DNA of 51,845 nt, from NCBI RefSeq assembly GCF_003334315.1, contig NZ_QOWR01000030.1, one strand, 5' to 3'. Positions 23,283-37,920 of the stretch are shown piece after piece. Made by a program: the position numbers and the translations under genes. Numbering within the stretch: position 1 is the stretch's first letter; each line of letters opens with the position of its first letter. This DNA is from Escherichia coli (GTDB lineage: Bacteria; Pseudomonadota; Gammaproteobacteria; Enterobacterales; Enterobacteriaceae). The notes under the pieces were generated by a model that did not search any database, was not told the origin of the DNA, and saw only the letters and a list, made by a program, of their open reading frames with translations.

Positions 23283-24458
23283 ATGCGTCTGTTTTCTATT
23301 CCTCCACCCACGCTACTGGCGGGGTTTCTGGCGGTATTAATTGGCTACGCCAGTTCAGCGGCAATAATCTGGCAAGCAGCGATTGTCGCCGGAGCCACCA
23401 CTGCACAAATCTCTGGCTGGATGACGGCGCTGGGGCTGGCAATGGGCGTCAGTACGCTGACTCTGACATTATGGTATCGCGTACCTGTTCTCACCGCATG
23501 GTCAACGCCTGGCGCGGCTTTGTTGGTCACCGGATTGCAGGGACTAACACTTAACGAAGCCATCGGCGTTTTTATTGTCACCAACGCGCTAATAGTCCTC
23601 TGCGGCATAACGGGACTCTTTGCTCGTCTGATGCGCATTATTCCGCACTCGCTAGCGGCGGCAATGCTTGCCGGGATTTTATTACGCTTTGGTTTACAGG
23701 CGTTTGCCAGTCTGGACGGTCAATTTACGTTGTGTGGAAGTATGTTGCTGGTATGGCTGGCAACCAAGGCCGTTGCGCCGCGCTATGCGGTAATTGCCGC
23801 GATGATTATTGGGATCGTGATCGTCATCGCGCAAGGTGACGTTGTCACAACTGATGTTGTCTTTAAACCCGTTCTCCCCACTTATATTACCCCTGATTTT
23901 TCGTTTGCTCACAGCCTGAGCGTTGCACTCCCCCTTTTTCTGGTGACGATGGCATCGCAAAACGCACCGGGTATCGCAGCAATGAAAGCAGCTGGATATT
24001 CGGCTCCTGTTTCGCCATTAATTGTATTTACTGGATTGCTGGCACTGGTTTTTTCCCCTTTCGGCGTTTATTCCGTCGGTATTGCGGCAATCACCGCGGC
24101 TATTTGCCAAAGCCCGGAAGCGCATCCGGATAAAGATCAACGTTGGCTGGCCGCTGCCGTTGCAGGCATTTTCTATTTGCTCGCAGGTCTGTTTGGTAGT
24201 GTCATTACCGGGATGATGGCTGCCCTGCCCGTAAGTTGGATCCAGATGCTGGCAGGTCTGGCGCTGTTAAGTACCATCGGCGGCAGTTTGTATCAGGCGC
24301 TGCATAATGAGCGTGAGCGAGACGCGGCGGTGGTGGCATTTCTGGTAACGGCAAGTGGATTGACGCTGGTCGGGATTGGTTCTGCGTTTTGGGGATTAAT
24401 TGCCGGAGGCGTTTGTTACGTGGTGTTGAATTTAATCGCTGACAGAAACCGATATTGA
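23283..24458 (+). CDS. ydcO: BenE-family inner membrane transporter, 391 aa
   Basis: ORF 23022..24458 trimmed to ATG at 23283 (MRLFSIPPPTLLAGFL...); multi-TM. Confidence 0.85.
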   Translation: MRLFSIPPPTLLAGFLAVLIGYASSAAIIWQAAIVAGATTAQISGWMTALGLAMGVSTLTLTLWYRVPVLTAWSTPGAALLVTGLQGLTLNEAIGVFIVTNALIVLCGITGLFARLMRIIPHSLAAAMLAGILLRFGLQAFASLDGQFTLCGSMLLVWLATKAVAPRYAVIAAMIIGIVIVIAQGDVVTTDVVFKPVLPTYITPDFSFAHSLSVALPLFLVTMASQNAPGIAAMKAAGYSAPVSPLIVFTGLLALVFSPFGVYSVGIAAITAAICQSPEAHPDKDQRWLAAAVAGIFYLLAGLFGSVITGMMAALPVSWIQMLAGLALLSTIGGSLYQALHNERERDAAVVAFLVTASGLTLVGIGSAFWGLIAGGVCYVVLNLIADRNRY

Positions 24459-24467
24459 CATCCTCCA

Positions 24468-26181
24468 CGCCCTGAAGGACGTGGATCCCTGCTACGTTCA
24501 GGCTGTCGCCTGAATCATTTCGGTGGGTTCCTGCTTCAACGGGCGGCCTGACTGCACCATCTCTCCACAGGCAAGAACGGCGTGCCCCGCCGCTAAAATG
24601 TTGCGAGCGCCATTTACATCGGCGTTCGCTGTATATCCACATACCTGGCATCTGAATTTACTTTGTGACAGGCGGTTCTCTTTCGCTGTATGACCACAGT
24701 ACGCGCAACGCTGGCTTGTATACGCTGGCGGAACAGCAAGCACCTGACCGCCACGCCAGAGCTGCTTGTACGCAAGCTGGCGGCGCATTTCATACCAGCC
24801 CTGATCCAGTATCGAACGGTTTAAACCTGATTTTGCCCGGACATTGCGCCCCGGCTGGCTGACCGTACCCGCTGCTGACTTTGACATGTTGCTGACCTTC
24901 AAATCCTCAATGACTATCATTGCGTGGTTTTTGCTGACGGCCGTTGTGACTTTGTGAAGGTAGTCCCTGCGGATATTTGCGATACAGGAATGCAGTCGCT
25001 GTATTTTGCGTTTCTGCTTTTGCCAGTTGTTGCTGAATTTGACCTTGCGGCTTAACTGTCGCTGAAGTCTCGCCAGCTTCTTCTGGTTTTTCTGAAAACT
25101 GTTTACAGGCTCAAAGACTGTGCCATCTGACAGCGTGGCGAGTTTAGCCACGCCAGCATCCAGCCCGACCATTGATGCTGAAGGGTGAACCGGAGTTGAT
25201 ACTTCACTTTCTGTCTGAATACTGATGTACCACTTACCGCAGGACTGGCTGACAGTGACATTTTTCACAACACCCGTGACCTGACGGCTGTTCCGGTAGC
25301 GCATCCAGCCCAGTTTCGGCAGAAAAATACGGCTGTTTTCCTGATCGAGCTTAACGCCCTGCGGGTAGCGGAATGCATCATTCTGTCCCCGCTTTTTGAA
25401 TCGGGGAAAAGCAGCCCGCTTCCGGAAGAAGTTTTTGTAAGCCCGCTCAAGGTCTTTCAGTGACTGTTGCAATGGCTGTGAGGGAGAATCTTTAAGCCAT
25501 TGCGTTTCAGTGGCATTTTTCCACTCAACCAGCCAGGAAGCCATTTTCCCGTAAGGGATGTATTTATTACCGGCCTCATGATTCTCATTCTGACGTGCCA
25601 GAGCACGATTGAAAACGAAACGACATGCGCCTGCGAAGCGCCTCATTTCACACTCCTGTTGACCACCTGGTCTTAACTGGAATTTAAATGCCTGTAATCG
25701 TTTCACAGGTCAAATGATACTTTGGTCTGTGAAAAAAGAAACCGATATCCGGCGTGGAAGGCATTGTGTTTTCCTGATGCATGTTCACCTGCTCTTTGTC
25801 ACCAGATACCGACGCCAGATTTTTGACCATGACGCGACAGAAAAACTACGCACTTACTTTTCAAATGTATGTGCTGATTTTGAAGCTGAACTGGTTGAAA
25901 TGGATGGCGAACCAGATCACGTCCATTTGTTAATTAACTATCCTCCCAAACTGGCGATATCCAGTCTGGTAAACAGCCTCAAAGGCGTATCGGGTAGGTG
26001 ACTGCGACGAGATCGACCAGATATTGCAGTCAGGTATTACTACAAAGGCGTTTTGTGGAGTCCTGGCTATTTTGCCAGTAGCTGCGGAGGTGCGCCAATA
26101 TCCGTCATTCGCCAATACATTGAACAACAGCAAACACCTGGTCAGGTGGAAAACCGCGCCTTATATCCCCGCCCTGAAGGA
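24468..26181. mobile_element. IS609 (IS200/IS605 family) insertion sequence, divergent tnpB and tnpA
   Basis: TnpB and Y1-transposase ORFs back to back; bracketed by a 12-bp direct repeat cgccctgaagga at 24468..24479 and 26170..26181; exact ends not determined. Confidence 0.65.
24498..25706 (-). CDS. insQ: IS609 TnpB (OrfB, RuvC-like nuclease with zinc finger), 402 aa from GTG (382 aa from internal ATG)
   Basis: ORF track; N-terminal QAFKFQLRP...CRFVFN motif; RuvC-I GLDAGV, RuvC-II VIEDL, zinc finger CAYCGH...CQVCGY, Ruv[13 protein letters not shown]. Confidence 0.85.
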
Positions 26182-26220
26182 TGGGGTTTTACGGCGCACC
26201 GGATAAAAAGCGCCATCTAA
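25714..26220 (+). pseudogene. insP: IS609 tnpA (IS200-type Y1 HuH transposase) interrupted by an in-frame TGA
   Basis: ORF 25714..26001 carries the HuH motif (PDHVHLLINYPP) and stops at TGA 25999..26001; the same frame continues ...LRRDRPDIAVRYYYKGVLWSPGYFASSCGGAPISVIRQYIEQQ... to TAA at 26218..26220, so the catalytic-Tyr region lies after the stop. Confidence 0.6.
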
Positions 26221-26237: not shown

Positions 26238-26906
26238 CTACTTTTTGTTAACGTCAAACATGGTGGCATCGGTCGCCATGTCATCAATAACTTGTTTAAT
26301 ATTTTCGAAAGCCATTGGCGTACTTTCGTTATTCAGGTCTTTACCTTCGCCCTGACGAACGACTTTGATAACCGGTTTATTAGTCGCTGCATCAATCAGC
26401 TCACCTTCAAAATAGAGGCGAGTATCCATGGTACGGTGGCCTGTAGCCATTTGCGTCCCCGCAACCACTAATGCAACAGGAACCACTTCATAGAATTGCA
26501 GCCCTTCTTTGCTGGTATCTACACCGGTAATGGCCCCACGGAAAATCAGACTACGCGGCCCAGCGGTGGTAACCAGTGGTTTACGCTGCGCTATCGCTTC
26601 TTTCATTTCGGTGTTGGTATAGTTCAAAATTTTATCCAGAACTTTCTGCCCTACCTGGGTCGACGGTTTCGGTACCGGATAATAAGTGATTGGGTTCCAG
26701 ACGATGCTGTCATATTTGCTTTGATCAAAACTCGGGTCTACCCAACGTAAAACAGGTTTACCTGTAGCCGAGGTTGTTTCTTTTAAATCAGAGTAATTGT
26801 TTAAAAAACCAGAATATTTATCTGGCTGGGTGATTTTAGAGGCACAACCAGACAGAGTCAATAAGCCGCATAAAGCTGCAACTTTCGCAAATGATGTGGT
26901 ACGCAT
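26238..26906 (-). CDS. ydcL: lipoprotein, 222 aa
   Basis: ORF track; lipobox LTLSGC after signal peptide. Confidence 0.85.
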   Translation of the reverse strand: MRTTSFAKVAALCGLLTLSGCASKITQPDKYSGFLNNYSDLKETTSATGKPVLRWVDPSFDQSKYDSIVWNPITYYPVPKPSTQVGQKVLDKILNYTNTEMKEAIAQRKPLVTTAGPRSLIFRGAITGVDTSKEGLQFYEVVPVALVVAGTQMATGHRTMDTRLYFEGELIDAATNKPVIKVVRQGEGKDLNNESTPMAFENIKQVIDDMATDATMFDVNKK

Positions 26907-36893: not shown

Positions 36894-37182
36894 TACCGTT
36901 GTCTCTCGTCCAGGTTTACTCCTGATAGAAAGTCATCGGCACTTGACGGTAATTACTTACGACTAAAAGCCTCTTTGCGTCACATTTTTACAACAATTAT
37001 TGCAGAGAAGGTTAATGCCATTGGAATGAAGAGAGTAACGAATGATTAAACGGGCTAACCCGAATGACGAAAAATTCTGGAAAACAGCACGCAATTTCGT
37101 GAAGTGATTATTTTCGTCCCTAAGGAAACCTCATAGGATGCCTGCGGGTGCCTGAGACTTTCTGTTTTCAGGCTAACCGGGA

Positions 37183-37233
37183 ATCAGAAAGACGAAGGCC
37201 CCGACCGATATTTCTATCAACCGAGGCCAACGA

Positions 37234-37250
<17 letters not shown>
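37183..37250 (-). ncRNA. sokB: SokB antisense RNA of the hokB/mokB type I toxin-antitoxin locus (approximate)
   Basis: Minus-strand terminator hairpin (GGCCUCGG...UCGGGGCC then U-run) complementary to the mokB start region; extent inferred from hok/sok architecture. Confidence 0.4.
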
Positions 37251-37441
<191 letters not shown>

Positions 37442-37856: not shown

Positions 37857-37920
37857 CTTCCGATGTAGACCCGTATTCTTCGCCTGTACCACGGGTCGGT
37901 TTTAGTACAGGCGTTTTCTT
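37857..37920 (+). ncRNA. rydC: Hfq-dependent small RNA RydC
   Basis: cttccgatgtagacccgtattcttcgcctgtaccacgggtcggttttagtacaggcgttttctt matches my recollection of RydC, including the terminal hairpin and U-run; sits between ydcA and cybB. Confidence 0.7.

Follow-up and report, generated by a model that had tools for sequence, protein, structure and literature searches.

Subterminal hairpins of IS609 as the probable source of a 12-nucleotide direct repeat in Escherichia coli

IS609 at the ydcO–ydcL locus

The window analysed here, a stretch of 51,845 nucleotides (51.8 kb) of Escherichia coli DNA (contig NZ_QOWR01000030.1, assembly GCF_003334315.1), contains between ydcO and ydcL a copy of the insertion sequence (IS) IS609 of the IS200/IS605 family. 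A 12-mer, CGCCCTGAAGGA on the plus strand, is found near each end of this copy. Very probably, the two 12-mers are the tetraloop and inner stem of IP_L and IP_R, the left- and right-end imperfect palindromes of IS609, that is, subterminal end hairpins for recognition by the transposase TnpA, of which the right-end one would also be a stem of the TnpB omega-RNA (ωRNA). The features of the locus are as follows, in window coordinates; labels such as L002 denote comparison loci.

24455–26202, minus (active, or top) strand: IS609, 1748 bp, delimited by the empty and occupied sites; copies at other loci match this span only
24468–24479, plus strand: left 12-mer copy, loop and inner stem of IP_R
26170–26181, plus strand: right 12-mer copy, loop and inner stem of IP_L
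24498–25706, minus strand: tnpB (insQ), intact, 402 aa, RNA-guided endonuclease by family (NF040570, 379.8 bits, cutoff 100)
25714–26144, plus strand: tnpA pseudogene (Y1 HUH transposase), by comparison with the intact 143-aa TnpA of L002
23022–24458, plus strand: ydcO, from RefSeq annotation of matching genomes
26238–26906, minus strand: ydcL, then tehB and tehA, from the same annotation

An exact-match search of the window returned the two copies 1702 bp apart, start to start, as an earlier sequence-only reading of this DNA had reported, and these are the only matches in the 51.8 kb with one mismatch allowed. The similar flanking context described in that reading was also recovered, as the similarity spans 21 nt with 18 of 21 identical (TCCACGCCCTGAAGGACGTGG versus TCCCCGCCCTGAAGGATGGGG; repeat family D7). 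Its placing of the copies by the 3′ ends of tnpB and tnpA holds in outline and is corrected in detail, the left copy lying 19 nt past the tnpB stop codon (24498–24500) and the right copy 26 nt past the natural tnpA stop position (26142–26144, CAG in the window copy). A 12-nt direct repeat is by itself unremarkable here, as the window holds 226 exact same-strand 12-mer pairs versus about 80 expected in random sequence. By comparison, chance does not account for where the copies lie, close to the two ends of a single mobile element: for a 12-mer located no more than 40 nt from one IS end, the probability of a recurrence equally close to the other end is about 1e-4. We regard the repeat as real because of this placement and because all independent IS609 copies examined elsewhere on the chromosome have both 12-mers.

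The boundaries of IS609 were set by comparison with an empty site. In E. coli AR_0077 (L001), the ydcO/ydcL junction is uninterrupted and reads ...AACCGATA/ATAAAAAGCGCC..., or in longer form ...GACAGAAACCGATA/ATAAAAAGCGCCATC... (the slash marks the junction), whereas in the window AACCGATA runs into TTGACATCC...GCGCACCGG, which is followed by ATAAAAAGCGCC. This comparison of empty and occupied sites defines IS609 as exactly 24455–26202, an insertion of 1748 bp without any target duplication, which bears out the expectation of the sequence-only reading for IS200/IS605 elements. That reading had also named the empty ydcO–ydcL site as a check; the AR_0077 site contains zero copies of the 12-mer. 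Since the repeats lie 13 nt (left) and 21 nt (right) inside the ends and none is present in the empty site, they are element sequence, and neither host sequence nor a duplication. Thus, the suggestion that they are conserved subterminal sequences of the element is upheld, with both copies kept in insertions at ytfB–yjfZ, yfeD–gltX and yajI, and the alternative of a duplicated host motif is refuted. Contrary to that reading, IS609 extends beyond the repeats instead of lying between them, and its boundaries are not fixed by them to within a few bases; the true ends lie outside them, and asymmetrically so. The ends themselves, TTGACATCC... and ...GCGCACCGG, are not inverted repeats.

The IS609 copies at ytfB–yjfZ, yfeD–gltX and yajI match the 24455–26202 span only, carry both hairpins, and show TTAT in the minus-strand flank and a TCAA tip. 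On the plus strand, the junction ...CACCGG/ATAA(A) is found in all E. coli IS609 insertions examined except the aberrant plasmid copy L007. Read on the minus strand, this junction gives a conserved TTAT, often TTTAT, directly 5′ of the tnpA-proximal end; on that strand, the opposite end invariably terminates in ...GGATGTCAA, next to a flank that is not conserved. Elements of the IS200/IS605 family have their conserved target on the active strand, 5′ of the left end. Because the conserved target is 5′ of the tnpA-proximal end, the minus strand is the top strand, with the left end (LE) at 26202 and the right end (RE) at 24455, and the active strand is the tnpB sense strand. The plus strand was considered as the active strand and rejected, since the conserved flank is 5′ of the tnpA-proximal end only on the minus strand and the plus-strand stems contain C·A mismatches.

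The site is polymorphic for interruption across E. coli: the ydcO/ydcL junction is uninterrupted in 2044 of 5417 complete genomes (~38%) and split in the remainder. IS609 has the hallmarks of the IS605 group, namely a Y1 HUH TnpA (intact in L002), a TnpB, neither target duplication nor inverted repeats, and a target together with a cleavage sequence at the RE tip.

End hairpins, guide tetranucleotides and cleavage sites

The elements of the two ends, all on the minus strand, are listed below.

24465–24484, minus strand: IP_R, right-end subterminal imperfect palindrome, CCACGTCC-TTCA-GGGCGTGG, with a T·G wobble; an extra T–A pair extends it to 24464–24485
26167–26186, minus strand: IP_L, left-end subterminal imperfect palindrome, CCCCATCC-TTCA-GGGCGGGG
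26156–26197, minus strand: outer LE stem GCGCC/GGCGC enclosing IP_L, from folding; 8 bp in the L002 copy
24455–24458, minus strand: C_R, right-end cleavage sequence TCAA, the last 4 nt of IS609; all relatives end ...AGGATGTCAA
24485–24488, minus strand: G_R, putative right guide tetranucleotide GGAT, directly 5′ of the IP_R foot; GAAT in six relatives
26187–26190, minus strand: G_L, putative left guide tetranucleotide AAAA, directly 5′ of the IP_L foot; covaries with the target
26203–26207, minus strand: target (left cleavage sequence, C_L) TTAT within TTTAT, the presumed transposon-associated motif (TAM) of TnpB; outside IS609, where the ydcL terminator provides it with its T-tract

On the minus strand, the right end reads GGAT-CCACGTCC-TTCA-GGGCGTGG-AGGATGTCAA/ and the left end TTAT/CCGGTGCGCCGT-AAAA-CCCCATCC-TTCA-GGGCGGGG-ATAT. 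Each 12-mer corresponds to the TTCA loop and the inner stem of an 8-bp hairpin, so that same-strand subterminal imperfect palindromes, as in the IS605 group, occupy both ends. The sequence-only reading had offered conserved subterminal sequences as one of two alternatives, and had overlooked the hairpin that each 12-mer caps and the minus strand as the functional one. At both ends, a T·G wobble forms the third pair from the loop; it becomes a C·A mismatch on the plus strand, and in every case folded the minus strand is more stable than the plus strand by ~1 kcal/mol. As single-stranded DNA (ssDNA), IP_R folds at -7.7 kcal/mol (z-score -2.6), and the IP_L region of L002, which has an intact tnpA and a C at the position of 26182, reaches -18 kcal/mol (z-score -3.9) with the outer stem included. 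An alternative register of IP_R, with a 9-bp stem and GGGA as G_R, was dropped in favour of 8 bp, which equalizes the LE and RE stems, leaves a 10-nt tail, and gives a G_R of GGAT or GAAT as in IS608.

The hairpins are conserved in relatives down to 50–65% TnpA identity, including one on a Methylomonas plasmid. Among 16 distinct relative ends, 89% of the cells pair, versus 43–56% when the stem partners are slid against each other, and the T·G wobble is retained in 12 of the 16. In addition, the LE and RE stems differ from each other in a compensatory manner (C–G versus A–T).

In two ydcO-site copies (L025 and L026), G-to-A changes affect both arms of the outer LE stem (GCACC...GGCAC; window positions 26158 and 26196), ~10–50 nt before the ...GGAT/AAAAAGCGCC junction; they form G·T wobbles on the minus strand, where pairing is kept, and mismatches on the plus strand. 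An element with 85% TnpA identity, found on IMG/VR contigs (L009–L014; LE near 3457–3470 in L009), has the IP_L CCCCATCC-TTCA-GGTCGGGG, with two adjacent non-Watson–Crick pairs, and occupies at least three different insertion sites with a TTAT flank. Thus, a quite imperfect IP_L seems compatible with mobility. In L007 (3195–3260; plasmid pIso00270_02, 94% identical), the LE is a perfect long palindrome, GCGCCTTATATCCCCG...CGGGGATATAAGGCGC, and the guide position holds ATAT instead of AAAA, mismatched to the flank; we treat this end as aberrant. In the 77%-identical plasmid relative L008 (3354–4466), the stretch separating the tnpB start from the LE hairpin holds an annotated IS4-like IS421 and lacks an annotated tnpA; an IS609-like LE hairpin is still recognizable ~1.4 kb further on. 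Finally, a geneless unit of ~50 nt in L019 (4985–5036, plus strand) consists of a single hairpin, CCCGTCC-TTCA-TGGCCGGG, preceded by a head that resembles an LE (TCAGTGCGCCGTAAAG) and followed by a tail that resembles an RE (ATAGTGTCAA); it represents either a minimal palindrome-associated transposable element (PATE) or a scar of recombination between the two direct-repeat hairpins.

The cleavage positions lie 16 nt 5′ of IP_L and 10 nt 3′ of IP_R. TTAT is found at the LE flank in four independent E. coli sites and in the relatives L008, L009, L010, L013 and L020, and TCAA at every RE tip examined. In IS609 and its relatives, the putative guide tetranucleotides match the cleavage sequences, as in other IS605-group elements, and three combinations of G_L and target were observed: AAAA/TTAT in IS609, L008, L009–L014, L020 and L021; AAAG/TTAC in L015; and AAAC/TTAG in L017 and L018. 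Relatives from Klebsiella (L022) and Shigella (L023) were excluded from this comparison, as their LE boundaries cannot be set without empty sites. In IS608, pairing joins the final base of the guide to that of the target. The changes in G_L and target fit this rule, judging from these sequences.

IS608 of Helicobacter pylori is the closest reference for this arrangement. In IS608, C_L is TTAC, 19 nt 5′ of IP_L, and C_R is TCAA, 10 nt 3′ of IP_R; the guides AAAG (G_L) and GAAT (G_R) lie 5′ of the stems and pair with the cleavage sites (A+16:T-3 and A+17:T-4), and the subterminal imperfect palindromes are bound by TnpA. IS609 resembles IS608 in its same-strand hairpins just inside both ends, in the absence of a target duplication, in a target tetranucleotide located 5′ of the LE and outside the element, in an RE that ends with TCAA 10 nt past the IP_R foot, and in an A-rich G_L that covaries with the target; the G_R of IS608, GAAT, is found in six relatives, whereas IS609 proper has GGAT. 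The nucleotides 3′ of IP_L are likewise similar (ATAT, compared with ATAC in IS608). IS609 differs in its target (TTAT versus TTAC) and in its LE linker (16 versus 19 nt). Its stem irregularity is a T·G wobble, its loop is TTCA, and an additional outer stem surrounds IP_L. By comparison, the stem irregularity of IS608 is an extrahelical T, and its tnpA and tnpB are co-directional, whereas those of IS609 are divergent.

By homology with IS608 and ISDra2, we infer the binding of TnpA, the chemistry of cleavage, and the expression and use of an ωRNA. IS609 would move as ssDNA with the window minus strand as the active strand, and each end would adopt a hairpin in which a TTCA loop caps an 8-bp stem containing the conserved T·G wobble. 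A dimer of the Y1 HUH TnpA would bind one hairpin per end on one strand, and the same sequence would for this reason stand at both ends in direct rather than inverted orientation. At the left end, AAAA would pair with the flanking TTAT, and at the right end, GGAT with the TCAA of the tip; this pairing would place cleavage 16 nt upstream of IP_L and at a distance of 10 nt downstream of IP_R. Precise excision would leave the donor joint AACCGATA/ATAAAAAG.

The right-end hairpin as a putative ωRNA element of TnpB

The tnpB gene has its 3′ end at the RE, with the stop codon 43 nt from the boundary. Its product matches the ISDra2 TnpB structures 8BF8, 8EXA and 8H1J (E 1.9e-54) and contains the motifs GLDAG, IEDL and NADVNGA, which we take to be the RuvC catalytic motifs. 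Two RNA features would follow from the position of the RE hairpin.

24455–24660, minus strand: putative ωRNA scaffold (extent approximate), which shares sequence with the tnpB 3′ end and stops at the RE boundary, with IP_R as its last hairpin; from the consensus structure
24435–24454, minus strand: putative ωRNA guide, DNA adjoining the RE on its 3′ side and antisense to the 3′ end of ydcO; TATCGGTTTCTGTCAGCGAT, after the model of Meers et al.

Read as RNA, the RE hairpin is CCACGUCC-UUCA-GGGCGUGG (24484–24465), with an 8-bp stem; the loop is UUUA in L009, L021 and L022. An 'RE-like tetraloop' of this form, an 8-bp stem with a UUCA loop or its UUUA variant, has been described for tnpB 3′ transcripts and for HgcC (PMC4615843), and the same study detected transcripts overlapping the 3′ end of tnpB in E. 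coli K12 RNA-seq data. Seven RE-proximal segments share a consensus structure in which 18 of 52 pairs show a compensatory change; its parts are the terminal hairpin, another hairpin ahead of it that shows compensatory changes, and a long-range ACAUUU/GGAUGU pairing. These observations suggest that the RE hairpin doubles as the last stem-loop of the TnpB ωRNA. In that case, the hairpin would be transcribed last and followed by a guide read from the flanking ydcO DNA, and the target of the native ωRNA guide would be TTTAT-TATCGGTTTCTGTCAGCG.

The likeness to HgcC (RF00062) and the sotRNAs lies in the 8-bp stem, the UUCA loop, the tnpB-sense 3′ end and the derivation from an RE; these families are archaeal, the rest of the IS609 scaffold is not alignable with them, and the scores fall far below the gathering thresholds. 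By comparison, the likeness to the homing systems of ISDra2 and ISGst extends to the protein, as the IS609 TnpB is close to ISDra2 TnpB, and the donor joint would consist of a TTTAT TAM and a guide-matching flank. The top strand of the empty site, TTTAT/TATCGGTTTCTGTCAGCGAT, shows the order of TAM and target of the donor-joint homing model, and TTTAT is also the wild-type TAM of GstTnpB2 (Meers et al.). At the ydcO locus, however, tnpA is dead, and there is no excision to counteract.

Could the hairpins be mainly RNA elements, the RE hairpin acting only as the ωRNA 3′ stem-loop and the LE hairpin as a tnpA terminator, with a secondary role in DNA for TnpA? The published UUCA motif, the conserved RNA-like structure around the RE hairpin, a tnpB that is intact and under purifying selection at the ydcO site while tnpA is dead, and the TTTTA that follows IP_L on the plus strand all speak for such a view. 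However, a role in RNA alone leaves the same-strand hairpins at both ends, their IS608-like distances and the guides unexplained, and the plus-strand stem carries the C·A mismatch. A terminator scan did not call IP_L, which is followed by four T only, and IP_R lacks any T-tract. Roles in RNA and DNA are furthermore not exclusive, and that of IP_R in RNA is already part of the TnpA-hairpin explanation; we consider it very improbable that the hairpins serve mainly in RNA.

Far less still can be said for a target-site duplication or a pre-existing host motif flanking the IS. The direct orientation near both ends is how a duplication would look, yet the repeats are internal rather than flanking as in DDE-type target-site duplication, the empty site has none and shows nothing duplicated, and the repeats accompany the element at unrelated loci and on contigs of plasmids and phages; this reading is next to impossible. 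A host repetitive extragenic palindrome (REP) was likewise set aside, as the sequence is absent from the empty site and has no other close match in the window. A functionless chance match hardly deserves credit either: repeats are common in the window, but this one combines its end placement with similarity over 21 nt, hairpins at both copies and conservation in relatives.

For the TnpA-hairpin reading itself, several points count on the other side. Covariation in the stems is thin, with a single double-sided pair (C–G to A–T) in three related sequences, and 352 of 500 shuffles reached the observed count of double-sided pairs. The Methylomonas relative L021 has two mismatches per stem, and the boundaries of L015, L017 and L018, which provide the variant G_L/target combinations, were set by alignment without empty sites. 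Over IS609, no Rfam family reached its gathering score; the matches at 24445–24571 (minus strand) are sub-threshold (HgcC, 22.2 against 50; sot0042, 15.5 against 88; RAGATH-18, 25.4 against 44.9), and we attribute them to the RE hairpin being an RE-like UUCA tetraloop, which the weak HgcC and sot0042 alignments cover. The window IP_L is degraded (-10.5 kcal/mol, z-score -1.0), and IS609 showed 0 transpositions in E. coli mutation-accumulation lines. Since IP_L is degraded, tnpA is dead and no transposition was seen in those lines, the hairpins of the window copy are probably relics as far as transposition is concerned.

State and significance of the ydcO-linked copy

The tnpA reading frame is interrupted by an in-frame TGA at 25999–26001, where the intact copy has TTA (Leu), and its natural stop TAG has become CAG at 26142–26144, such that the downstream frame continues across IP_L, leaves the element and extends to 26220. 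A frameshift, which was the first reading of the open reading frame (ORF) list and is the wording in some RefSeq annotations, was rejected on account of this in-frame TGA and lost natural stop. By comparison, the intact TnpA of L002 scores 145.7 bits with NF033573 (cutoff 55); the accession of the intact 143-aa IS609 protein is WP_000604943.1. At ydcO and several further sites, tnpA is a pseudogene, whereas tnpB is full-length in all nine copies compared (comparison set: window 24498–25706 on the minus strand, L002–L008 and L025–L027), with ratios of nonsynonymous to synonymous polymorphism (pN/pS) of 0.14–0.38. In these comparisons, the nuclease gene tnpB thus outlives the transposase gene tnpA.

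The mismatch in the window IP_L is an A·C pair caused by T at 26182, which is common to all ydcO-site copies sampled; the non-ydcO E. coli copies examined are free of it. Its reading as a private inactivating mutation is not supported, as this T is shared by all ydcO-site copies sampled and also occurs in a related element that is inserted at three or more sites. Relative to the catalogued IS609, the window copy is the same element and departs from it by the internal tnpA stop and the one IP_L mismatch. Taken together, its sequence indicates a copy that is probably non-autonomous and decayed, with an intact tnpB.

In principle, the ydcO-linked copy might be more than a decaying element, namely an immobilized TnpB/ωRNA module kept by selection. 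This idea draws on the ydcO-site copies sampled, in which tnpA is dead, IP_L is mismatched and tnpB is intact (pN/pS ~0.3), and we hold it to be unlikely. If it were true, the RE hairpin would be maintained for its role in RNA, and the guide would match the TTTAT-flanked empty ydcO/ydcL junction. The module could then serve as a chromosomal drive or addiction element that kills or converts recombinants receiving the empty allele, which is found in ~38% of E. coli genomes; alternatively, it might act on ydcO/ydcL expression.

The anatomy of the IS609 end hairpins is already known from the IS608 architecture, the published IS609 cleavage sites and the published UUCA motif. Our literature search for the IS609 ends returned catalogue-level data only: Table S1 of PMC9956272 lists IS609 (group IS605c) from E. 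coli, with a Y1 TnpA and TnpB and the cleavage sequences TTAT (LE) and TCAA (RE), and gives a length range of 1637–2247, within which the 1748 bp found here fall. The main value of the present analysis is therefore annotation, comprising the exact boundaries 24455–26202, the active strand, the hairpins, the guide and cleavage tetranucleotides, and the TAM and putative guide of the resident TnpB. As a small addition, the three G_L/target combinations lend sequence-level support to the IS608 pairing rule in an enterobacterial clade. Moreover, the same hairpin would serve as a signal in DNA at each end and, at one of them, also as a stem in RNA.

The end of ydcO (24453–24458) changes from ...CGA TAA in the empty site to ...CGA TAT TGA in the occupied one, and the IS609 right-end tip supplies the stop codon, extending YdcO by one C-terminal Tyr. 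On the other side, IS609 lies directly after the intrinsic terminator of ydcL (26229–26210, minus strand; GCGCCATC-GTTA-GATGGCGC-TTTTTAT), whose T-tract is the source of the TTTAT target/TAM and which is left intact. Elsewhere in the window, and unrelated to the IS609 repeat, matches at the Rfam gathering level comprise the sok antitoxin RNA at 37146–37297 (plus strand, 109.7 bits) and the small RNA (sRNA) RydC at 37857–37920 (plus strand, 92.5 bits).

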